From IMG/VR virus record IMGVR_UViG_3300009499_000296: a DNA stretch of 64,000 nt; one strand, written 5' to 3'. Position numbers and translations under genes: made by a program. This document shows, piece by piece, positions 2,626 through 59,923 of the stretch. The notes under the pieces are model-generated. The model was not told where the DNA came from. It made no database searches and saw only the letters and a program-made list of their open reading frames with translations. Source of the DNA: an uncultured virus (IMG/VR IMGVR_UViG_3300009499_000296). Its lineage: Duplodnaviria > Heunggongvirae > Uroviricota > Caudoviricetes. How positions within the stretch are numbered: position 1 is the first letter of the stretch; each line of letters opens with the position of its first letter.

Positions 2626-2796
2626 ATGCAAGACAAAACCCTTGCCAACTACGAACGATGTCGCAAGCCGTGTCCGGGCGGAAATGAGTGCATTCTGCAA
2701 GACGTGAAGCATACCCTCTGTGTCTGCCCCGATCCCCGATGTTGGTGCCACTCTTCAGATAGGTATTGCCAGGAGCGAGGAAAGGAGAATGGATGA
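2626..2796 (+). CDS. small Cys-rich protein (56 aa, below the ORF-track cutoff)
   Basis: AGGAGG RBS, MQDKTLANYERCRKPCPGGNEC...; overlaps the initiator start. Confidence 0.55.
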   Translation: MQDKTLANYERCRKPCPGGNECILQDVKHTLCVCPDPRCWCHSSDRYCQERGKENG

Positions 2797-3340
2797 AGTA
2801 ATCCATGACGAAAGCGACCTAAGAAAATACCGTACAGAGATACCCAATCTGATTGACGACATGGGATTGGATGTCTACGAGGCTCGTCTCTACCTACATT
2901 ACAAGAGAGTGTGTGGGGCCAAAGGGGGCACATGCTGGCAGAGTGTCCGAACAACTGCCAAGGCCTGCAAGATGAGCAAGGGCAAGGTCACGGGGACACG
3001 AAAAGGCCTTGAGCGGAAAGGGCTCATTCGCTGCGAGAAGAATACGGAGACCAGCACTATTAACATAACCATCATGGACATCTGGCCCGCCAACTTCTGG
3101 TGGTACTCGGCACCGCGAGAGGGGCCCCTACCCACCATTGCCGAAATGGTAGCTAGGTGTCCACCACATGGACAGGGTGCCCACCACACGGGACAGGGGT
3201 GTCCACCAGGTGGACGTAAGAAGGAACCCTATAAGAAGAAACCATATAAGAAATATAGTCGCTCACGTCAAAATTCAAGTCTTCCCACACAAGATGACTT
3301 TAGAGCGGAGCTGGCAGCCATGAAAAGAGAGGTATGGTAA
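2789..3340 (+). CDS. phage replication initiator (winged HTH, lambda-O-like)
   Basis: IPNLIDDMGLDVYEARLYLHY...CWQSVRTTAKACKMSKGKV...LERKGLI; internal iteron-like repeats; upstream of a DnaC-like gene. Confidence 0.75.
   Translation: MDEVIHDESDLRKYRTEIPNLIDDMGLDVYEARLYLHYKRVCGAKGGTCWQSVRTTAKACKMSKGKVTGTRKGLERKGLIRCEKNTETSTINITIMDIWPANFWWYSAPREGPLPTIAEMVARCPPHGQGAHHTGQGCPPGGRKKEPYKKKPYKKYSRSRQNSSLPTQDDFRAELAAMKREVW
3156..3258. repeat. putative replication origin (iterons plus A-rich tract) inside the initiator gene
   Basis: three copies of GGTGYCCACCA..GGAC, followed by TAAGAA-rich repeats. Confidence 0.5.
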
Positions 3341-40128: not shown

Positions 40129-42490
40129 TTAGCTCCAGCCAGTTGACCCAGCCGAGAAGATCAGATAGACGTATTCTGGGCGGAACTGCTGATACTTGAT
40201 CCAGGCATCCCAACTGAACCGGTACATGCTCTCGAAGTCGTCTACTGGAGGGGGGGTGTGCAACTGAGGTCTCTGCCCCACGCCAGCGGCAACCCCGTTG
40301 GGGCCAGCGATGAACACAGTCATGTGAACATCAAGACCCCTGGTGATGTACCAGGTATCTGAGGCAGTCAAATCCTTTAGGATCGGCCTCTCAAAGCTCA
40401 GCGTGTTGTCTCCACCCGGGTCAACCGCATAGATGACTCGCTCGATCTTCGTACCATCGTCCCACTTAGCCCTGCCGTCGCTCTCCCTGGTCTGTTGAAT
40501 ACTCACCCTATCCTTGGCGCTGAACCCCGTAGAGTCAGTTACAGTGATATAGTGAGTAGCATCGGCTTCACCGACACCATACACTCCACGCACCTTCGTT
40601 GCGGGGGTAGGTGCGCCGTCGCCTGCGTCCACGTCTGCGGCCAGGGTGGTCTGAGCAGAGACAGTTCCACAGTTCCACAGAATGTTCCGAGTGGTCTGTA
40701 GGAACCGAGCCTGCTTGTACTGCCCTACCTCATAGCGAGAGATGGGGGGTATGTTCTGGTACAGCTGGACTGACTTCCAGTGGCTGTCGTCGGCTGCCGC
40801 GGCCTGGATATCGTAGATCACACCGGGAGTGGTGATCCCTACGATTGTGCCCTGCGGTCCCGTGGGGTTGTTCGCCATCGGGCACTCATTGACCGCTGCC
40901 TCTAGCCAGACCTGCATCACGTCATCTACGTCGAAGATGTCGGTGGAAGTCAGGTTGGCGAATCCTGAGTCATCTACACCGGTTGCGGTTCCCGAGAACA
41001 TCATGAAGTAGCTGTTCCCGAAAGCATTCCGCATGAGGACGTCCAGATAGTCAGTGATATTCTGGCCCAGCTTTCCTCGACAGATTGGCCTCAGCCCCGC
41101 CTGCCCGTTCTGTTTCCAGTAGGTCACCATGTCGTCGTACTTGTGAAGGGAGATTTTGTCCCCGTGCAATCTGTTACTTGACCAACCAACCTATTTGTGG
41201 TATACTGTACCCATCAGGATAACTTTACAAGGAGGTCAATCATGGACTCTATAGTTGTTGCCGAGTTTCGCGGTTTGTTCTGGGGTGAGGGTTCGGTTCT
41301 GATCACCCGCAAGAGACTCAAGGGTAGGGGCCTTTGGACTTATGTTCCCGCTCTCACGATGGATATGTACAACGACGAGAGGGAAATCTTGAAGGCGGTC
41401 GCCCTACACATTGGCGGTCATTTTGGCGGCCCCTACAAAATCTCTGGTGCCAATGATAGCTTCCGCTACCGCTGGCGCGTAGATGGCTTTACCCAAACCC
41501 CGCCTATTGCTCGCTTGCTCCTAGACGGAGCTGTTCTCCCACATCCTAAGATAGAACAACTGGGGCTCCTGCTGGAGTTCTGCAACTACCGTCTCTCGTT
41601 TCGCCACAGTTACCTGGGGCGAAAAGTCAAGGCAAAACTGGCTGAGTATTTCGAGCGCATGAAAGCTCTCCGTTGTTAAGGTTGGCGAGCCAGTCATTTC
41701 TGCTGGCCTCTTACGGTTCATTTCCCGTAAGTTCGGACTGTCGCATCCTCTTTCGAGGCCCTCTCGCTCAGTCTCTCAGGCTGCTTCCGCTTGCCCCCTG
41801 TTGGCATCTCAGCGTTCAGGTCAATCAGAGAGGGTTTTTCATTCTCGCTATGCTGCGAGCGGGAGCGCCAAGGTTCCTAAACGCTCCATCGTTACCTGGA
41901 TGGAACGAGAGTCCAGGTGCTGGCTGGGAACCCAGAGCTCCCGGTCGCCCAGCGCAGTCACGTCAGGCTCCGTGTCGTAGAGCTCGCGGAAGATCATCGT
42001 TTCGGTCGGTGCGGCGAGCATGTTTACCTGATACCTCACGAAAGGGGCGTACACCGACCTGGCGCGGAAAACATCAAGCAGGTCTGGAACATACCAGTCT
42101 CTTTTATTGTTGGTTATAGCGCCCCATAATGTGTTACTTGCTTACCCGTCCTGATGCGTATAGAATTCTTGACGGGCGGGCCATCATTTCTGTGGCCTCT
42201 GCATGTCACCATGCAGTTCGGACTATACCACGATCTGCCCGCCTCCTCGGCAGACCCACCGTGTCTAGTCTCTGAACCGTCTCCCGCCTCCCGGGGGGCT
42301 TGGCTGCTGATTGTCCCTATCTCCAAACTTCTCAAACCCTCACGCTTATCGTTCCCGATTACGTTGTGGTGTCGGAGCCTAACGGGATATTCCAGCAATT
42401 TACGGTGTTTTCATACAGGGTCACCCCCGTATGCCCCTGGGGCTAATCAGGGTGGTCGCTATAATACGTATCGAAGTCTCCAGTAGCCAT
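40129..42490 (-). CDS. major capsid protein, three exons (42490-42449, 42126-41881, 41166-40129), ~441 aa spliced
   Basis: exons join in frame: MATGDFDTYYSDHP|WGAITNNKRDWYVPDLL...VTMER|HGDKISLHKYDD...; follows the scaffold gene; RYEVGQYKQARF, PVDDFESMYRFSW. Confidence 0.85.
41178..41206 (+). promoter_or_regulatory. intron-internal promoter for the antisense HEG
   Basis: TTGACC-N17-TATACT with TG extension. Confidence 0.75.
41242..41679 (+). CDS. LAGLIDADG homing endonuclease, antisense within intron 2
   Basis: AEFRGLFWGEGS motif; AAGGAGG RBS; KIEQLGLLLEF. Confidence 0.85.
   Translation: MDSIVVAEFRGLFWGEGSVLITRKRLKGRGLWTYVPALTMDMYNDEREILKAVALHIGGHFGGPYKISGANDSFRYRWRVDGFTQTPPIARLLLDGAVLPHPKIEQLGLLLEFCNYRLSFRHSYLGRKVKAKLAEYFERMKALRC
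42127..42448 (-). mobile_element. group I intron 1 in the capsid gene (322 nt, no ORF)
   Basis: P AAATTGCTGGAA, Q AATCAGCAGC, R GTTCAGAGACTAG, S GTATAGTCC; P2 with GUGA tetraloop. Confidence 0.9.
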
Positions 42491-46242: not shown

Positions 46243-46273
46243 ACAAAAACGGCCATCCGATTATGGATGACCG
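46243..46273 (-). terminator. terminator downstream of the CRISPR mini-array
   Basis: CGGTCATCC-N6-GGATGGCCG-TTTTT. Confidence 0.7.
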
Positions 46274-46306
46274 CCTCAAATTGGTGGGTCGCTTATAAAG
46301 TTGTCA

Positions 46307-46457
46307 CCGTTCACCCCCACTGACGTGGGGAAAACAACACGTATCTAACGTGTCTCCCTCATTTCTCTCGGTTCACCCCCACGCGTGTGGGGAAAACAGG
46401 GAAAACTCTCATGGAAGTTCAGGTATGTCCGGGTCACCCCCACTATGTGGGGAAATA
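46307..46457 (-). CRISPR. type I-E-like CRISPR mini-array: 3 repeats, 2 spacers (32 and 33 nt), no cas genes
   Basis: central repeat GTTTTCCCCACACGCGTGGGGGTGAACCG (46369-46397); variants at 46307-46335 and 46430-46457. Confidence 0.88.
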
Positions 46458-46655
46458 GCTGCTCAGCTCCGGTATATCCTTCGACTTCGTGCCTGTGTCA
46501 ATCATGTCCACCCGCCCCTCTCTGAGGTGGATAGTTATCGTCCCGTGTCCACTGGTATTAGCAATCTGGACAATAGCTAGGGCCACTTTCCATATTGCCC
46601 CTCTCTCCCTTGGGGTAAGCTCCCTAGGAAGTTCGGCGATGTGGTCTGGTATCAT
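46443..46655 (-). CDS. small DUF2292/YezD-like protein; stop codon lies inside the first CRISPR repeat
   Basis: GHGTITIHLREGRVDMID. Confidence 0.55.
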   Translation of the reverse strand: MIPDHIAELPRELTPRERGAIWKVALAIVQIANTSGHGTITIHLREGRVDMIDTGTKSKDIPELSSYFPT

Positions 46656-46668
46656 ATTAACCACCCTT

Positions 46669-46696
46669 ATTATATCAGGTTTTCTGGCATTGTCAA
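46669..46696 (-). promoter_or_regulatory. sigma70-type promoter upstream of the small ORF and mini-array
   Basis: TTGACA-N16-TATAAT with TG extension. Confidence 0.75.
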
Positions 46697-47294: not shown

Positions 47295-47534
47295 TTATCC
47301 TCCAACCGTACCCCGTAAAGTCTCTCGGTCGTCAGCGCCATTTCGCTGAGTTTGCGCGAAACGCTCTACTGCCTCTCCAACCCGTACCCCTAGAGGGCAG
47401 CCCTGAAGCATATACGAGTTCTTCAGAAGAATCCCAAATCTCCGATATTCCTCTGGAGACGGTCTCTTCTCCCACTTCCCGTCACGGGATAGCGGCTCTA
47501 CGATGAATTCTAGTTGTTCCTGGGTGAGTCCCAC
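47295..47534 (-). CDS. hypothetical protein
   Basis: GGAGG RBS, GTG start. Confidence 0.5.
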   Translation of the reverse strand: MGLTQEQLEFIVEPLSRDGKWEKRPSPEEYRRFGILLKNSYMLQGCPLGVRVGEAVERFAQTQRNGADDRETLRGTVGG

Positions 47535-48265
47535 CGTTTATCCTCCAGTTTCACTCCATACAATCGCTCTATCTTCTCCTGAAAGTAGGCCCACACATTG
47601 GCGGCATTCTCATTAGCCTTCATCACCCCACTCCCCTTCCCCCTGCGATACCTGAAGAGCATTCGATGGATCCCCTGCGCTCTGAAGCCCAACAAGTGAG
47701 CCTCCATGAAGAATAACCAATCCTCCCAACCGTAGTGCTCTGGCTTATGTAACTCAGGGTCATAGCCTGTTCTGTTCTTCTCCCTGACAGCTTCCCACAC
47801 ATCTTTCTTGAAGAGCGTCGTGTTGACCATCTCGTTGTGGTCGAGTATGACCTTGGCTAATTTCTCGGGTGTCCTGGGGGGGCATCTCACACTGCCCCTG
47901 TACTTCCCAAAGTACGAATAGTCAGGATAAGCCAAGTCCACCCCAGCACTGAGTACCTGTAGGCCCGTCTCTATCATGTCTGGCTCTAACAGGTCATCTG
48001 CATCCAAGGGCAGTATCACATCGCACCCCCTGTCAATGAGAAACTCGATACCCGTGTTTCTAGCAGCGGAAGGGCCCTTGTTTTCGTCGTGGCGGAGGAG
48101 GTGAGGCTGAAGAGCCAAGCACGCCCTGACAACTGGCCAGGCCTCTTCAGAAGCATCGTCTACTACGACAACGCAAGAAGGCCTCACTGTCTGCCAGGCC
48201 ACACTCTCCAGTGCTTCACCCAAGAGGTGGGCTTGGTTGTAAACCGGTATGACTACCCCTACCAC
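47510..48265 (-). CDS. GT2 (GT-A) glycosyltransferase
   Basis: VVIPVYN, VVDDAS, NKGPSAARNTG, LDADD, WEDW. Confidence 0.92.
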   Translation of the reverse strand: MVGVVIPVYNQAHLLGEALESVAWQTVRPSCVVVVDDASEEAWPVVRACLALQPHLLRHDENKGPSAARNTGIEFLIDRGCDVILPLDADDLLEPDMIETGLQVLSAGVDLAYPDYSYFGKYRGSVRCPPRTPEKLAKVILDHNEMVNTTLFKKDVWEAVREKNRTGYDPELHKPEHYGWEDWLFFMEAHLLGFRAQGIHRMLFRYRRGKGSGVMKANENAANVWAYFQEKIERLYGVKLEDKRWDSPRNN

Positions 48266-48471
48266 TCCTTTACCTCCTGCACAATTTGATATTTCAGGGC
48301 AGCAACAAGGGCCGCCGTAGCATTGAGCGCCCCCTCAGTGAGGTCGGCAATGTCGTATTTCAGGGTGAAATTCATATCCCCAAGCCTACCGTGAACCAGT
48401 ATCTCTCTGGAAGAGGGACCGACACCCCACTCTCGCTTCTTGTACTGTATCTCTCTAATGGTGATTTTCAT
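48259..48471 (-). CDS. hypothetical protein
   Basis: translationally coupled within the cluster. Confidence 0.5.
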   Translation of the reverse strand: MKITIREIQYKKREWGVGPSSREILVHGRLGDMNFTLKYDIADLTEGALNATAALVAALKYQIVQEVKEW

Positions 48472-49436
48472 TATGCCTCCGTGTGTTTAAGATACCATTC
48501 CACTGTTGCCTTCAGCCCAGCCATAAGATTCGGCTCGGGGAGCCAGCCCGTCTTCTCCACCAGCTTGTCAATGTTCGATCCCCTCCGTGGGTATCCATCA
48601 GGGAGAGAAGTGTCGAAGGTGAGCAGCTTCTTCACTCCTATCACATCCTGAATGAGTAGTGCTAGCTCCTTAATACTGACTCTGTTGTGGGGATTGCCTA
48701 TGTTCACCGGGTCAGCCTCTGGATAGTGTTGCAGCACCTTCATCAGCCCTGTCGCTGCGTCCTTAGCCAATAAGAACTCCCTGATTGGCTCGCCTGTGCC
48801 GTAGACCTTCACTACCTCGTCCTCAAGCGTGCGCTTGATAAGAGCAGGTATCACATGGGAGGTCTCTTCGTCAAAGTAGTCGCGAGGGCCGAAGCAGTTA
48901 GAGAACCGTGTGATGGCAATCTTTATGCTACGCTCCGCAGCTACCCATTGAGCATATCGCTCCCCCATCCTCTTGGCCCAACCGTATCCCGCGTTGGTGG
49001 ATTCGGGGTCCCCCCTGTGCCCCTCGCTCTCTAAGGCGGGGAACCTGACATTGTGGGGGTAGACACATACCGTACTGACCTGAGCGTACAAAGGCACACC
49101 TGCTTCGGCACAGAGCGAAAGGGGTACAGTCTGGAGTAGCAAATTCTGATAAAACATCTCGGCATGATGCTTCCGGTTGTAGTGCATTCCTGTTACCCTG
49201 GCTGCCAAGTTGAATACGGCGTCCCTATCAACAAGGTCATAGAGATCATGGCTCTGAACGGCATTGGTGTGACGGAACTCACAGAGCACACCCTCTAAGT
49301 TGCTCATACGCCCACGGCTCAGGTTGTCCATTACCAAGACATCCGCCCCTGCCTCCACGAGCAGCTCGACCAGGTGGGAGCCTATCATGCCAGCACCACC
49401 AATCACAGCAACCCTCATTCCTTCGTAAAAGCTCAT
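48471..49436 (-). CDS. NAD-dependent nucleotide-sugar epimerase/reductase (GDP-fucose-synthase/GME-like)
   Basis: GGAGMIG, YGWAK, HVIPALI, GTGEPIREFL. Confidence 0.9.
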   Translation of the reverse strand: MSFYEGMRVAVIGGAGMIGSHLVELLVEAGADVLVMDNLSRGRMSNLEGVLCEFRHTNAVQSHDLYDLVDRDAVFNLAARVTGMHYNRKHHAEMFYQNLLLQTVPLSLCAEAGVPLYAQVSTVCVYPHNVRFPALESEGHRGDPESTNAGYGWAKRMGERYAQWVAAERSIKIAITRFSNCFGPRDYFDEETSHVIPALIKRTLEDEVVKVYGTGEPIREFLLAKDAATGLMKVLQHYPEADPVNIGNPHNRVSIKELALLIQDVIGVKKLLTFDTSLPDGYPRRGSNIDKLVEKTGWLPEPNLMAGLKATVEWYLKHTEA

Positions 49437-49453
49437 TTCCTCAACCTCCTTAC

Positions 49454-50047
49454 TTACTCAAAGTTGATCTCAAACTCAGCCCTGCTTCGTTTGATTGCTA
49501 CACCGTAATGCCTGTGCGTCTTGATGTCAGGCTCGTCATCACTATACCCAACAAACAACAAGCAGGCTAGAAGATAGCGATCAGTGATGTTCAGCACCTG
49601 GCGAATCGCAAACTCCTTCCGGCTAAGCTCTTTCGGCTCGACCGACTGCCAGCATGTTCTCAATCCAAGCGATTCTGCTATCAGCATCATGCTCATCATC
49701 GCACAGGCTGTGTCCTGCCAGATGAACCTGCTCCATGGGTGCGAGAGAGCGAGATTGAACCCTAGTGGATGAGGCTTCTCAAGGTCAAACAAAACAGCAA
49801 TAACCACCGGAGGATGAACCTTACGAAACCACGGCGCTGAGTTCTCACAGATGATGGCAATCACTTCTTTACCCTTGACAGTAAGAATTCTGGTCTTTTG
49901 GGAGTTGCACGCTGATGGCGCATACATGCCGGCAACGATGATGTGTTCAAGTTTCTCCAGCTCAACATCTCTCGCAGACCAACAACGAACGCTTCTTCTT
50001 CCCTTAATGAGCTCCATCAAGTCTTTCTGTTTCACTCTATACACCAA
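49454..50047 (-). CDS. nitroreductase family flavoprotein
   Basis: RRSVR, APSACNSQ, AESLGLRTCW. Confidence 0.88.
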   Translation of the reverse strand: MVYRVKQKDLMELIKGRRSVRCWSARDVELEKLEHIIVAGMYAPSACNSQKTRILTVKGKEVIAIICENSAPWFRKVHPPVVIAVLFDLEKPHPLGFNLALSHPWSRFIWQDTACAMMSMMLIAESLGLRTCWQSVEPKELSRKEFAIRQVLNITDRYLLACLLFVGYSDDEPDIKTHRHYGVAIKRSRAEFEINFE

Positions 50048-51005
50048 GAAGCGCCTCCTTCAGGTTCGAGAAGAATGGCTTCAAATCTACATGTTGATAC
50101 TCTCGTTCGATGACTTTCTCAACAGCTACCGGCACCTGGTCAGAATTCGATACGAATTCAACCGCCGAGGACAACAGCTCTCTAAAACCAGAAATCTTAT
50201 GTGGTATCCTATCGTCTATGGCCACGCATGGTGTATTGGTGAGTGTGGCAAAAATCATGGCGTGCATCCTATCAGTCACAACTGCCTTGAAGTGGGGATA
50301 GTGTCTCAAAACACTATCTATGTACTGGCCTCGGACAGAATCAGTCAGATCACACTGGCTAACCTGCACGTCTTTCGCAACGACATCAAACCTCGCTCTC
50401 AGCTTGGCCATCATTGCTTTTTTCATCTCCGAAGTCAACGCCGCCTCATGGTCATTTCTAATCACAACAAGCACACCGCTCCTCTCACCGTACTCGAAGT
50501 TCGGTCTCAAGTAGAAAGCAAAATCAGGCACCATCATACTCTTGCATGTGAAGTTGGCCTCTAAGATTCTATGGCTGACTGGCTCCCTGGCCATCAGCAG
50601 CACATTTCTACGCGCGTCAAGGAAGCTCTTATCCTCTGCAAGCACACGCGCACAACCCTCAAGAGTCAAACGTGGCCCACGGCTACTGACAGGATAGTAC
50701 GATACAGTCACGGGTAGTTGAACAACCCTGCATGGCAGGGTCATTATCTTCTTCCTCACACCATGCCAGATTGGATCAAGAGTGCCAAAATCGCCGCTGC
50801 TATGAATAAACACCAGGTCATTATCATCCACAGTCTCAAACAGAGAAGGCAACCTGCGCACGGTTTCTTCTCTATCTTTTCGCTCAACCTCCCACTCAGG
50901 AAGAAAGTCAGTGATCCACTTCTGGACTGCTACCACCTGCGCATGGTCGCCAACGCTTCGATTAGACGCCGGAAAGTTGCCAAGCCAAAGAATCTTCTTC
51001 ATCAT
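50037..51005 (-). CDS. polysaccharide pyruvyl transferase
   Basis: SVGDHAQ, SGDFG, AREPVS, VPDFAF, TDRMHAMIF, HKISG. Confidence 0.85.
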   Translation of the reverse strand: MMKKILWLGNFPASNRSVGDHAQVVAVQKWITDFLPEWEVERKDREETVRRLPSLFETVDDNDLVFIHSSGDFGTLDPIWHGVRKKIMTLPCRVVQLPVTVSYYPVSSRGPRLTLEGCARVLAEDKSFLDARRNVLLMAREPVSHRILEANFTCKSMMVPDFAFYLRPNFEYGERSGVLVVIRNDHEAALTSEMKKAMMAKLRARFDVVAKDVQVSQCDLTDSVRGQYIDSVLRHYPHFKAVVTDRMHAMIFATLTNTPCVAIDDRIPHKISGFRELLSSAVEFVSNSDQVPVAVEKVIEREYQHVDLKPFFSNLKEALLGV

Positions 51006-51703
51006 ATCCTCGACCCAAAACAACTCACTGTGGTAGCCCTCTTCTCACTCAGAATCTTACCGAGCGGCTTCGCAGGAAAATGCCTGGTCACCTTATACAT
51101 GAAGATCCCATCAGCATGAAACTCATCGGCTTTAGAGCAATTCGTGTATGGGTAACTGAGAGAATCAAGACAGCTACTATGAAAGCAAAACTGACCACCA
51201 TCAATGGCGCCATCCGGAGACCTCTTAGCGCCAAAGACACAAGCCGGATTCAGAGACTCCCCCCAACCCACAGGACCCATCTTGGTCCTTTTACCATCAA
51301 CCATTCGTGTGAGCCTAAGGCCATGATAGCATGCCTTCACGTCAGCGTTCTCCTTGAAAAACCTGTCTATCTCCTCAAGACAATTAGGGTAGAGGATGTC
51401 ATCATCAGCCAGCCAGAGAATCAGCTCTGCTTGTTGCTTCAATTCTCTGAAGTACTTGTCATGAAGCACCACATGAACCGGCAGCCGTTTTCTCTCATCG
51501 TCTGAGAACGCTTCTTCAAAGAGAGTGATCCTAGAGTCATTGAATGACTTAATCACCTCCATCGTCTTGGTCTTCTCAGTTGTACTATTGTCAACCACAG
51601 CGTAGATGAAATCGCCAAAGGTCTGAGCCAGCACGCTGTTGATCGCATCGCCAACATACCCTGGCTTATTGTACGACAGCGTCAATATCCCGAACCTCTT
51701 CAA
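51002..51703 (-). CDS. GT2 glycosyltransferase
   Basis: SYNKPGYVGDAINSVLAQT, VVDNS, LADDD. Confidence 0.85.
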   Translation of the reverse strand: MKRFGILTLSYNKPGYVGDAINSVLAQTFGDFIYAVVDNSTTEKTKTMEVIKSFNDSRITLFEEAFSDDERKRLPVHVVLHDKYFRELKQQAELILWLADDDILYPNCLEEIDRFFKENADVKACYHGLRLTRMVDGKRTKMGPVGWGESLNPACVFGAKRSPDGAIDGGQFCFHSSCLDSLSYPYTNCSKADEFHADGIFMYKVTRHFPAKPLGKILSEKRATTVSCFGSRI

Positions 51704-51706
51704 TCT

Positions 51707-52363
51707 CTATCTCCTTCTCAAGTACCCACCAGGATTGGCAGTCACGAAAAATTTCTCCCGGGACCTATCTATGATGAATTGGTCGTTGGTCTTCAGGAAC
51801 TCTTGCACTGCTTCAAACGGCCCTTCCCCCCAGCCAGGCAACGTTGGGTGCCCATTGAGAGCCGTGTCCTCCACTATCATGTAGCTACCGGATGACACCA
51901 GCCCAGCATACACTTTCATCTCGGCAAGAACATGCGCCTTAATGTGATTTGAATCGAGATCAACTAGCACAACATCACCTGGTCGAATCAGCGACCTCAC
52001 CCTGCCTACAATCTCAGGCGCAATAGATGAGCCCTTCAAAAAGGTGATTCCCTCGTGTACCGGCAACCCTTCAGGCTTGAACCAATCAAAGTGATGGTCT
52101 CCATGAATCGGCGGGTACTGAACATCTATACTCACCACCCTACCGCGACCAACAAGATCAAGAATGTTAGCCATGAACAGGGCGCTGCCACCGAACTGCG
52201 TCCCGCACTCCACAATGATGTCAGGCTTCACCTCACTTATGATCTCCTGCAACGTCCAGAGATCCTGCGGATACTTTGACACCGGGTAGCCAAACCATCT
52301 CGTGTTCTGCCACACGTGTGAGTCAGAGTAGAACCGCTGAAACTCCTCAACTATCTTCTCCAT
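51707..52363 (-). CDS. CmcI/cephalosporin-hydroxylase-family (rhamnosyl O-)methyltransferase
   Basis: KYPQDLW, KPDIIVECGTQFGGSALF, DLDSNH, YMIVEDT. Confidence 0.9.
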   Translation of the reverse strand: MEKIVEEFQRFYSDSHVWQNTRWFGYPVSKYPQDLWTLQEIISEVKPDIIVECGTQFGGSALFMANILDLVGRGRVVSIDVQYPPIHGDHHFDWFKPEGLPVHEGITFLKGSSIAPEIVGRVRSLIRPGDVVLVDLDSNHIKAHVLAEMKVYAGLVSSGSYMIVEDTALNGHPTLPGWGEGPFEAVQEFLKTNDQFIIDRSREKFFVTANPGGYLRRR

Positions 52364-52397
52364 TTTACGGTCTGTCCCCCAAAGTTTAAGATACTTA

Positions 52398-52898
52398 TCA
52401 TTTCCGTATCCAGCCTACTATTTCTGAGCCAGGCGTATTGGCTCTGCCATCTGTGGCTGTCTCCATACCTAGTCTCCTGAGACTTGGGCGGTACACCGAC
52501 CAGTAGTGCTGCTCTGTTGGGTTGCCTTGATATACACCTTGGGGATACCTCCCCCAAGGCGCTGCTACTGCCAACAATTGATGTGTGATAGCAAGTAATC
52601 GCTCTATCACATGTGGAAACTCTTTCTGCTCAACGTGCTCAGGGCCATGCCACCACCAGACATAATCAAACCCATCCGATATAGGCAGCGCCCGCACATC
52701 ACCAAGCACAATGTTACACAGACGCGGATCCCCCGTAAAGTCACGGGCGTTCTTGGGCCAGATCTCAAGAAGCGTAATTTCATTTCCAGCGTCAGCTAAC
52801 TCGGTAAGCCAGGCACACGCATCTAGCCGGGCACCGATATACAACAGTGTCCCTGGCTTCTCAAAGGGCTCAGGAATATGGGGCCGAATGTCGTGCAT
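52398..52898 (-). CDS. class I SAM-dependent methyltransferase-like protein
   Basis: LLYIGA, LEIW, GDVR, FDYVWWWHGPEH. Confidence 0.65.
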   Translation of the reverse strand: MHDIRPHIPEPFEKPGTLLYIGARLDACAWLTELADAGNEITLLEIWPKNARDFTGDPRLCNIVLGDVRALPISDGFDYVWWWHGPEHVEQKEFPHVIERLLAITHQLLAVAAPWGRYPQGVYQGNPTEQHYWSVYRPSLRRLGMETATDGRANTPGSEIVGWIRK

Positions 52899-53009
52899 TA
52901 TGTGACTAACTCCTTACCATAGTATGGATGAAGCTGCATCTTTGGGGGCATTATGCCCTTGTCAAACGGTTCGGGATACCACCACACAACAGCGGGGTGT
53001 ACGCTGTGA

Positions 53010-53888
53010 TCATACTATCTCCATAGTAGAGGGCATAGGTAGCCCACCTACTGCCTGCCTGACCATCTTCCCAAAGGTGTACTCACCACACATCATCCGG
53101 TGAGTCCTTCGCCCCATCGCTTGCCACCAGTTGTAGTCATCGTTCAGCAGCCGAGCTGCTCTGCCTATTAGCTCATCGTACTCTACTTCTATGATACAAT
53201 GGTCGTCACCACCACGGGTGTAGGGGTAGGCGTCGCTACATGCCTCGGTAAGGATGGGCAATCCAAAGGCAGCGGCCAACGAGAACCGCAGGGGCTCCAG
53301 GGCAGGGAAGTCATCCTGGTGAACGTTCAGCATGAAACCCGATTCACACAAGGCCTTCTTCCGCTCATCACCCCAACCGTTGGGAGCCATGCGGATGTTA
53401 CGTTTTGTGAATTGGGCGCAGATGTGGTTACGTCTCCCATTCTGGTAGCTCATGTGAGCAAAGTCATACTCTCGGGGTCCCTTCTCTGTGGTGCCCAGCC
53501 CTGGGTGGCTCCCCAATATCACAAACCTCACCCGGTCATCATGCATGTGGAACACCAGGTATTTGTCACTGAGCCACACCTCATCGAAATACCAGTCATC
53601 CAGCGCCTCTTTGCATCCCTGCCTATAGGCTGCCATGCCGTAGGAGCCACCGGGGCGCTCAAGGCACCACCAGACCACTCTTGCTCTGTAATTATCATCT
53701 CGGTGTGCATCCCGGTGTGGCTTCCACTCCCCATTGAGAGGGGACACGATGTAGACTGCCTCACGAGAAAAGTTCACCTCATCCACATAACAAGTGGGAA
53801 AACCAGACAGCCCTACGAGCTTCCAGTAGTCAGTATATGAATCATATGAGTAGCGGGTTTGGGCGAATACTATGGGCCGTTCTGTCAC
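53010..53888 (-). CDS. GT-B glycosyltransferase-like protein
   Basis: GWGDERKKAL...FMLNVHQ...LEPLRF...PILTE. Confidence 0.65.
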   Translation of the reverse strand: MTERPIVFAQTRYSYDSYTDYWKLVGLSGFPTCYVDEVNFSREAVYIVSPLNGEWKPHRDAHRDDNYRARVVWWCLERPGGSYGMAAYRQGCKEALDDWYFDEVWLSDKYLVFHMHDDRVRFVILGSHPGLGTTEKGPREYDFAHMSYQNGRRNHICAQFTKRNIRMAPNGWGDERKKALCESGFMLNVHQDDFPALEPLRFSLAAAFGLPILTEACSDAYPYTRGGDDHCIIEVEYDELIGRAARLLNDDYNWWQAMGRRTHRMMCGEYTFGKMVRQAVGGLPMPSTMEIV

Positions 53889-53892
53889 TTGG

Positions 53893-55515
53893 TTACCTCC
53901 ATGGATGCCACCCGATAAGGGCCTGGAGTTCAGCGATCCTATCCAACCAGGTGTATTTCTCATGGACTAACTCGCTGCCCTCTCGGGCTATACGTTGTCG
54001 GATACTGTCGTGCTCCAAATAGTAGTCAATCTTGCGCACCAAATCATCGTAATCCGACCATGTTTCAAGGTGTATGCCCCGCTTAAACTCTTCCTCGATG
54101 CCAGGGTAGTCGTGGGTCACGTAGAAAGCACCACTGCCCATCGCGCGAAACAGGCGGTTAGATGTGTAGCGGCGCAAAGAAAGGTGGGATTGTCCAACGG
54201 CGATCTTGCAAGTCCTGTAGCAGGCTGCTTCTTGGCACCAATCCAGCCTCTTGGTAGGAAAGGGCCAGCCAGCACCGTAGACACCGAAATTGTCGCCGTA
54301 CCTTTGCCGAAGAAATTTCACCATATCCAAGCGGTGATCCGAGAGTGGGAAGTGACCTGGGTAATTGTTGCCAAGGAAGACAATCGGTGGGTAGCTATCC
54401 CCTGCATGGCTCCAAGGATGAAGAAGGTGATGCCACCAGCCAATCTGTAGGTAGTCTGCCTGTATACCACCCTTGCGGAACTCCTCTACCCAGTCCATGT
54501 TAGTAACCAGCGTCCAATCAATCTCCTTGCCCAGCTCGAAGTACCATCCAGGAATAGGAGCTCGCACGTCACCTGACCAGTTGACAATCACCCGTCCCTC
54601 ATCTTTCATCAGGCGAGCCGTTCTCACATCTATAATACCTGGGGTCTGCAACTGCATAAATACCAAACTGGGGTCCCATTGGTCACAGGCAATAATCGCC
54701 TCCTCCCTGACCCTTGGCCCCAGCTTTCTCCAGTCTAACTGCTTGTATTCCCCCATTGACCTCAAGGCTCTCTCTAAGCCCGGTTGGTTTTCGCCTGGTA
54801 CATTTAGAGCTATATGGAGTATCCTTCTTCTAAATCCTGTAGGTTCATCAATCCCTTTTCTCAAGGAGTAGAACTTCTCGCTATCAGGATTTACCCCCTC
54901 AGGGTTATTTATGTCTCTGAGTTTGTCTTTGGTTGCTAGGTCATGTACTCGGCAATCTCTCAACCCTACAACCTCGTAGCCCATCTCCATGATGCGACAA
55001 CTTAACTCGCAGTCCCCTCCATAAGTGTAGAACATGTCGGACCACCACCCCGCTCTATCCCCCAGTTCCCTACGAGTCATCCCCTTGTTGGCGTAGACTC
55101 TTCCAAATACGTGGTCAAACCGATAGTCGGGGCTATACAGGTCGAAGGCAAAAGCCACCTGCCCCACTTCGGGATGGGCCTTCATGTAATTGTACGCCCG
55201 GGCAATGCAATCACCCTGTACTTCATCATCGTCATTGATGTGAACGCAAAAGGGAGCTCTTGCCAGCCTCCATCCAGCAGTGAAGGCCCGACAGGCTCCC
55301 GTGAGTTTGCCCTGTTCCACAACCAGCACATCTTCTTGTTGATGCAACCACGCCAGCGTACCATCTGTACTTCCAGCGTCTACGACTATAATCTCATAGG
55401 GAATGTCTTCCACCGAGTCCCTAACGCAATAGATACACGACTTGAGTGCTTCCAGCCTATTCCAGGTGCCGAGGATGATACTTATCTCCACGTCACCTAT
55501 TTGGTTTCCACCCAT
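53893..55515 (-). CDS. fused GT2 plus CgeB-like GT-B glycosyltransferase
   Basis: VVDAGSTDGT, NDDD, YGGDCE; C-terminal TSNRLFRAMGSG...KIDYYLEH. Confidence 0.88.
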   Translation of the reverse strand: MGGNQIGDVEISIILGTWNRLEALKSCIYCVRDSVEDIPYEIIVVDAGSTDGTLAWLHQQEDVLVVEQGKLTGACRAFTAGWRLARAPFCVHINDDDEVQGDCIARAYNYMKAHPEVGQVAFAFDLYSPDYRFDHVFGRVYANKGMTRRELGDRAGWWSDMFYTYGGDCELSCRIMEMGYEVVGLRDCRVHDLATKDKLRDINNPEGVNPDSEKFYSLRKGIDEPTGFRRRILHIALNVPGENQPGLERALRSMGEYKQLDWRKLGPRVREEAIIACDQWDPSLVFMQLQTPGIIDVRTARLMKDEGRVIVNWSGDVRAPIPGWYFELGKEIDWTLVTNMDWVEEFRKGGIQADYLQIGWWHHLLHPWSHAGDSYPPIVFLGNNYPGHFPLSDHRLDMVKFLRQRYGDNFGVYGAGWPFPTKRLDWCQEAACYRTCKIAVGQSHLSLRRYTSNRLFRAMGSGAFYVTHDYPGIEEEFKRGIHLETWSDYDDLVRKIDYYLEHDSIRQRIAREGSELVHEKYTWLDRIAELQALIGWHPWR

Positions 55516-59894: not shown

Positions 59895-59923
59895 TTCTCT
59901 TGCACCTCCTTACGACAACGCAA

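Follow-up and report, generated by a model that had tools for sequence, protein, structure and literature searches.

A Cas-Less Type I-E CRISPR Mini-Array in a Tailed Phage, Probably Directed against Related Phages

Introduction

What could a CRISPR array of three repeats be doing in a phage genome stretch devoid of cas genes, and how did it come to lie at the very end of a small gene? This question is raised by a minus-strand locus within a stretch of 64,000 nucleotides from an uncultured member of the Caudoviricetes (IMG/VR record IMGVR_UViG_3300009499_000296; hereafter, the window).

According to the sections of PMC6858448 devoted to viral mini-arrays, these arrays carry spacers against close relatives, the targets lie near the arrays for unclear reasons, and the orthologous site of the carrier is altered; some spacers of leaderless phage arrays (Faure et al. 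2019, as cited in the same sections) hit adjacent genes of related phages and spare the carrier. The corresponding parts of PMC11656645 and PMC7099407 agree with PMC6858448 on phage mini-arrays, and Racrs are defined, in the relevant portion of PMC10651486, as solitary repeats.

Results and Discussion

Organization of the Minus-Strand Unit

The window belongs to a tailed phage, in which a portal (45927–44440), a major head protein, a terminase and a holin were identified; the mini-array is carried by a virus. On the minus strand, a sigma-70-type promoter (46696–46669; 12/12 consensus bases, 16-nt spacing) is followed by a 70-aa ORF, named P0001 (46655–46443), whose stop codon lies inside the first repeat, then by the CRISPR portion and by an intrinsic-terminator-like hairpin of 13 pairs (46277–46246). 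The CRISPR portion (three repeats and two spacers, 151 nt) consists of a degenerate repeat 1 (R1, 46457–46430; 28 nt), spacer 1 (S1, 46429–46398; 32 nt), repeat 2 (R2, 46397–46369), spacer 2 (S2, 46368–46336; 33 nt) and the terminal repeat 3 (R3, 46335–46307). The layout given in the preliminary description of the locus was thus recovered, position by position. Across the window, relaxed promoter-like sites number 5 versus 2.8 expected, and terminator-like sites are, as a class, not above chance (3 versus 3.8 expected), the hairpin of the array itself being conserved in a related locus, the metagenome contig L012. An alternative 88-aa ORF from a GTG start was rejected, as it begins upstream of the promoter and is unsupported by homologs. 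The P0001 ORF was also found on the 77-kb contig of the phage.

The absence of cas genes from the window, which had been reported on the basis of the sequence alone, was confirmed by probing it with seven host Cas proteins: a single row with an E-value of 0.037 was retrieved from the 64 kb (the phage contig of 77 kb extends about 13 kb beyond the window). Moreover, no host-type leader precedes R1, the sequence upstream being a coding one, whereas AAGG precedes 16 of the 24 host array starts. We infer that the array lacks a leader and would hardly acquire spacers in place. Located 20 nt ahead of R1, the codons for K-S-K-D (46486–46478, minus strand) are similar to the final part of host leaders (AAGG), probably by coincidence.

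Insertion of the Array at the Stop Codon of P0001

The contig L012 harbors the same upstream ORF, an equivalent promoter (17-nt spacing), a P0001 ortholog (59% identical), the terminator, the next ORF and the portal, with no repeat. Compared to it, the window has a net excess of 169 bases at the stop codon, 151 of which are represented by the array, and the codons for E-L-stop flank the array on both sides as imperfect copies; the E-L-stop codons mark the point from which the right flank (46306–46281) can be aligned with the empty allele. All the P0001 homologs (12/12) end at I-P-x-L, and P0001 alone runs six residues further into R1, with a stop codon formed by the altered loop of this repeat. 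Read from the aligned alleles, these data show an insertion of the array at the stop codon of the ORF, between a pre-existing promoter and a pre-existing terminator; that the array was gained rather than lost is deduced from one empty allele (59% protein identity), from the ends of the homologs and from the host-type repeat. Since promoter, ORF and terminator are all present in the array-free L012, the transcription unit is older than the array. The self-contained transcription unit originally proposed does have its promoter and its terminator; it was not built for the array, existing also without it in L012.

As for P0001 itself, it looks like a phage protein of a DUF2292-like family, judging from its relatives: 8 of the 13 family members match DUF2292 (PF10055) at E ≤ 0.1 (best 3.3e-6), P0001 itself does not, and an Atlas lead for DUF2292 stands at 0.84. 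Its structure is predicted to comprise a helix and two strands, with a pLDDT of 78; fold searches retrieved nothing clear (best Z 3.5; best E 0.07), and neither Pfam nor PHROG returned a match for P0001. Relatives of the locus were sought in viral contigs by means of P0001, the P0001 alignment, the portal, the portal alignment and the terminator-flank motif, in all cases with no result; none was found among phage records, and plasmid matches were weak (E 0.4). The locus L013, considered as homologous, was rejected on comparison. The P0001 family was not found in the 5 and 401 genomes searched for it, and the portal matches in 46 out of 391 Chloroflexota genomes are only 23–33% identical, the 15 fetched being without a P0001 homolog.

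Conservation of the Repeat Stems

The search of the window with the repeat pattern yielded 8 rows versus 0.73 expected, five of which fall at the array, including both exact matches; the other three are two-mismatch rows elsewhere in the window. The array has the type I-E format (29-nt repeats with a 7-bp stem, an 8-nt handle, and spacers of 32–33 nt), with the exception of R1, which is 28 nt long and has a 3-nt loop. An identical 7-bp stem is present in the predicted folds of R1, R2 and R3, the fold of R1 alone being not above that of its shuffles (z −1.24). R1, the loop of which provides the stop codon of the ORF, keeps its stem intact and shows one change in the 5′ handle with respect to the host consensus; R3 differs from R2 in all four loop bases and in one 3′ base, and its loop is absent among the 14 loop types in host loci. 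Overall, the changes that separate R1 and R3 from R2 fall at 0/28 stem and 11/30 non-stem positions (Fisher p 3e-4), a count in which the gapped R1 was treated by hand and which is biased, since the stems serve to recognize the repeats. The conservation of the stem with variation of loop and ends, already noticed from the sequence, is therefore borne out by the counts.

The Host Type I-E System

The search of species genomes with a two-repeat pattern, which was built from R2-like loops, retrieved 44 loci, 39 of which are labelled as Chloroflexota (the 44 include several overlapping pieces of one record). R2 is identical to a host type I-E repeat, being the dominant repeat in 13 of these 44 loci, and R1 and R3 are variants of it. 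Pfam domains Cse1, Cse2, CT1975, Cas5, CRISPR_assoc, Cas3 and Cas1 lie beside the arrays in L043 and L044, that is, a complete type I-E operon; all five Cascade genes (cas8e, cas11, cas7, cas5, and cas6e) were found in 7 out of 14 tested R2-bearing loci, two of the seven belonging to one record. Host spacers are 32 nt long in 727 cases out of 1142 and 33 nt long in 292, and S1 and S2 match these modes. Both the type I-E assignment and the expectation that the repeat would lead to host arrays were thus upheld.

Against the window, the 1142 host spacers gave no match (best 15 nt), so that the host has been deduced from its repeat type; twelve of the 16 host spacers from run X1 were compared by eye, and none equals S1 or S2. 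In the one metagenome run containing the window, and possibly its source, there are many contigs with the same repeat, the summed depth going from 13.7 to 1356 in the R2 bin (125 records), and other spacers sit between R2 copies; a cell with the R2 repeat shares the sample with the phage. These contigs break at R2 and therefore do not confirm the adjacency of S1 and S2. Furthermore, the 3′ end of the phage tmRNA is identical to those of Anaerolineae-class genomes over up to 33/33 nt (the comparison being within the class only). The carrier is, most likely, a phage of Chloroflexota.

Concerning the PAM of the system, two supplement rows of PMC8482600 list near relatives of the repeat with AAG (type I-E) and AA PAMs, the exact repeat being absent from them. 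At 991 of 1161 host junctions the repeat ends in G, which fits a PAM-derived base, in line with what is stated in the parts of the literature consulted. An AAG PAM for the R2-type system is thus supported indirectly; a search for protospacers from which to measure it gave no usable ones.

A phage-borne, host-type repeat downstream of a strong consensus promoter might also act as a decoy, as Racrs do: abundant phage crRNAs would occupy the Cas6e and Cascade of the host and dilute its anti-phage crRNAs, irrespective of the spacers. According to the relevant portion of PMC10651486, interference was lowered by a non-targeting crRNA as well, and a solitary repeat of the same family occurs in other viral contigs (L002 and L003). 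We regard this explanation as quite unlikely, because the phage carries three repeats with two full-length spacers rather than a solitary repeat, and the target-like information in S1 would be superfluous for a decoy. For the same reason, the Racr option of the preliminary description does not hold, the defining solitary repeat being replaced here by three repeats and two spacers. A decoy action could nonetheless be a side effect of the array.

Origin and Target of Spacer 1

Translated in frame, S1 reads D-I-P-E-L-P-stop, which is the conserved C-terminal end of the P0001 family; this correspondence to the 3′ end of the very gene upstream had been missed in the preliminary description. The stop codon is followed, within S1, by two bases and by the 8 nt with which the repeat begins. 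Such 8 nt are found in the last 12 nt of 1 host spacer out of 1142, and the viral array L004 likewise starts with a stop codon, two bases and the repeat (one case).

In a test devised after the match was seen, two of the window's 127,964 reading positions encode D-I-P-E-L, one in S1 and the other at the end of P0001. The latter, i.e., the own counterpart of the S1 target (46481–46447, minus strand), is preceded by AAG in PAM register (46481–46479). Over the first 15 nt, the own site differs from S1 at positions 3, 9, 12, and 15, which are third codon positions only, and beyond position 15 it is divergent (17/32 overall). In the shuffle null, 0 of 200,000 S1 shuffles reached this correspondence at an AAG site of the unit and 102 at any site; among the 1142 host spacers, taken as a second null, one did so at any site of the unit and five did so when AAG sites throughout the window were considered. 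At the level of codons, these data show a coding origin of S1 and a synonymous divergence of the own site. The orthologous site of the carrier, behind AAG, is thus altered at positions 3, 9, 12, and 15 and at most of positions 16–32, and through this alteration the carrier would escape self-targeting. The simplest source of S1 is a related phage whose P0001 ortholog is followed by its own repeat.

No full match of S1 was found in viral contigs, in 401 Anaerolineae-class genomes (up to three mismatches), or in phage and plasmid records, and none of the 13 P0001 family members ends in I-P-E-L-P. Six loci in viral contigs share an exact 17-nt match with S1; they were attributed to chance, as the matching stops at once and the genes are unrelated. 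In two other phage arrays sharing this repeat, no spacer showed such a match to an ortholog of the carrier's own genes. The simple version of a homing scenario, with the empty allele as the target, was discarded, because the site in L012, the sole empty allele seen, matches S1 at 13/32 positions only. Regarding the spacer searches and the PAM check suggested at the outset, neither S1 nor S2 gave a full match in the respective collections searched, and the PAM check did reveal AAG at the own counterpart of S1.

In principle, S1 might be a relic, that is, a tandem duplication of the end of the phage gene together with the start of the repeat, or a spacer whose target is gone, in an array that guides nothing useful. 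S1 does resemble the 21 nt that precede R1 joined to the beginning of this repeat, its last 9 nt are a near tandem copy of the first 9 nt of R2, its target was not retrieved from viral contigs or from the 401 genomes, and R1 and R3 are degenerate. However, the counterpart of S1 begins exactly after AAG and S1 has the modal length of 32 nt; over 15 nt the differences from the own gene fall at third codon positions only; the stems are unchanged despite 11 changes elsewhere in the repeats; and the promoter has the full consensus. On balance, we consider a relic unlikely.

The best ungapped match of S1 in the window (22/32) lies at the 5′ end of the ORF (46643–46612, minus strand), just downstream of the own promoter. 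A match of this level is reached by 1 of 727 host spacers within the 243-nt stretch there and by 20 of 400 anywhere in the window. Hence the idea of a crRNA-like autorepression, in which crRNA 1 would guide Cascade to this site, 20–50 nt past the promoter, repress the unit and thereby sense the Cascade of the host; RNAs of the CreR/CreTA type sense host Cascade through repression. Nevertheless, the site has GAC at the PAM position (versus the presumed AAG) and mismatches to S1 at positions 1, 7, and 9, it is not conserved in L012 (13/32), and the match is partly due to the codons for I-x-E-L-P at both ends of the protein; in addition, taking the 5′ site as the ortholog would need a stop codon at the invariant R11. 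In the relevant part of 10.1101/2023.03.03.530964, all the hand-examined regulatory targets have a cognate PAM. Autorepression is, in our opinion, decidedly improbable. If the array is directed against related phages, the 22/32 match is left as a coincidence.

Spacer 2

No full match of S2 was retrieved from viral contigs or from phage and plasmid records; the exact 19-nt match found at one locus in viral contigs was ascribed to chance, since the matching stops at once and the gene is unrelated. The fetched host cas loci, among which the true host genome is not included, contain nothing convincing (best 21/33, scattered). The first 14 nt of S2 match positions 59900–59887, at the start of a phage gene, exactly; a 14-nt match counted from the 5′ end is attained by a single host spacer out of 1142. 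This might suggest that S2 is a regulatory guide, whose target would be either a cas promoter of the host or the start of the phage's own gene at 59900, and phage mini-arrays against cas promoters are indeed described in the relevant part of 10.1101/2023.03.03.530964. The site at 59900, however, has GCA at the PAM position, and the scattered 21/33 match in the host cas loci lends no help to the first version; a regulatory S2 appears very improbable.

A Possible Mechanism

The likeliest function is the one anticipated for arrays of this kind, i.e., the use of host Cascade against competing elements, in agreement with the host-type repeat and with the content of S1. Specifically, we consider it probable that a tailed phage, whose host most likely belongs to Chloroflexota, uses this type I-E mini-array, devoid of both a leader and cas genes, against related phages. 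According to the best reading of the sequence, S1 would be aimed at the junction between gene end and array in a relative, while sparing the carrier.

The array was presumably captured via recombination with a host array rather than by spacer uptake in place, and the mRNA of the unit would double as pre-crRNA. In type I-E systems, Cas6e cleaves at the 3′ base of each repeat stem; the Cas6e of the host would thus cut at the three stems and release one crRNA of about 61 nt and another of about 62 nt. Together with crRNA 1, host Cascade and Cas3 would attack relatives whose ortholog ends in D-I-P-E-L-P-stop beside its own repeat. Cascade requires a PAM and a seed, and Cas3 requires a full R-loop; because of this, the own site would be spared, owing to the seed mismatch at position 3 and to the lost distal half, and a perfect relative would be degraded. 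S2 would target another competitor, one that was not sampled here.

A further, more speculative scenario, to which we give limited credence, is that mini-arrays residing at one site fight each other. Spanning the end of the rival's gene and the start of its repeat, S1 would select against array-carrying siblings; guide and immune target would form one block of less than 250 bp, replacing the allele of the rival in co-infections, in a manner resembling that of a homing element that works via host Cascade. In the same speculative vein, ribosomes terminating in the loop of R1 could also gate the release of crRNA 1.

Comparison with Known Systems

The mini-arrays of the Saccharolobus viruses SPV1 and SPV2, as presented in the corresponding sections of PMC6858448, are alike in having one or two spacers, host-type repeats and no cas genes; they also have near-array targets in related viruses and an altered own locus, as would be the case here. 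Unlike them, the phage array is of the bacterial type I-E and without a host-like leader, the putative target is the insertion junction itself, and the target virus was not found in the searches carried out here. The leaderless mini-arrays described in phages by Faure et al. 2019 are likewise thought to derive from recombination with host arrays (according to the pertinent parts of PMC6858448, PMC7099407, and PMC11656645). Compared to what these parts convey, in the present case the empty allele reveals the insertion site, the promoter and the terminator of an existing gene are used, R1 supplies the stop codon of the gene, and S1 seems to include the start of the competitor's repeat.

Racr units, as described in the relevant portion of PMC10651486, share with this locus a phage-borne host-type repeat after a promoter and the lack of cas genes; unlike them, this locus has three repeats and two spacers of normal length, and no acr/aca gene was identified beside the array. 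Similarly, regulatory mini-arrays and crlRNAs, in the part of 10.1101/2023.03.03.530964 that deals with them, combine degenerate repeats with a partly matching site close to an adjacent promoter, as here; the phage array differs in the absence of a PAM and the broken seed at the 5′ site, in its normal-length spacers and in its location outside a cas locus.

A literature search, mostly of open-access texts and with a prior listing possible, retrieved no Chloroflexota phage mini-array and no spacer spanning the array junction of a rival. Cas-less viral mini-arrays against related viruses are already known; here, the target appears to lie at the insertion site itself. The locus illustrates how a mini-array may be installed, through an empty allele, the takeover of the promoter and terminator of a gene, a loop that replaces the lost stop codon, and a stem that is kept. 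With S1 at the insertion junction, it would represent an extreme case of the unexplained closeness between targets and arrays, and an explanation based on linkage and allele replacement becomes testable. The replacement of one array by another, if true, would account for the near-array targets left open in the sections of PMC6858448 on this topic. A search rule might also be suggested, that is, to translate the spacers of orphan mini-arrays and to compare them with the neighbouring genes.

Other Observations in the Window and in Related Loci

In the window, a match to tmRNA (58259–58091, minus strand) spans the whole Rfam model in 169 nt and was not called by ARAGORN; it might be either a compact tmRNA or an attachment-site-like end. 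A strongly structured, RNA-like stretch (60465–60350, minus strand; z −4.6), with no Rfam or tRNA match, lies right after a promoter-like sequence (recognized by eye). Upstream of the head-protein ORF there is a match to a group I intron (42533–42199, minus strand), together with an oppositely oriented 160-aa ORF (41197–41679, plus strand) with no Pfam match, in which we take a stretch to resemble a LAGLIDADG motif. Between the terminase and the portal (47510–55515, minus strand), genes were found for glycosyltransferases, an epimerase, a pyruvyl transferase, methyltransferases and a nitroreductase.

As for related loci, L001 (3001–3149, three repeats) and L004 (3001–3088, two repeats) are further viral arrays of the same repeat family that look Cas-less, a perfect palindrome preceding that of L001. 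L002 and L003 (about 2640–3030) harbor a solitary repeat of the same family after a promoter-like sequence and a short ORF, and represent Racr candidates; by eye, the short ORF presumably encodes a ribbon-helix-helix-like protein. Among the host loci, WYL-WCX domains are in frame with Cas3 in L043 (446–4237) and L044 (183–3815), and L039 (763–9448) contains a pPIWI_RE operon with cas1 adjoining the array.
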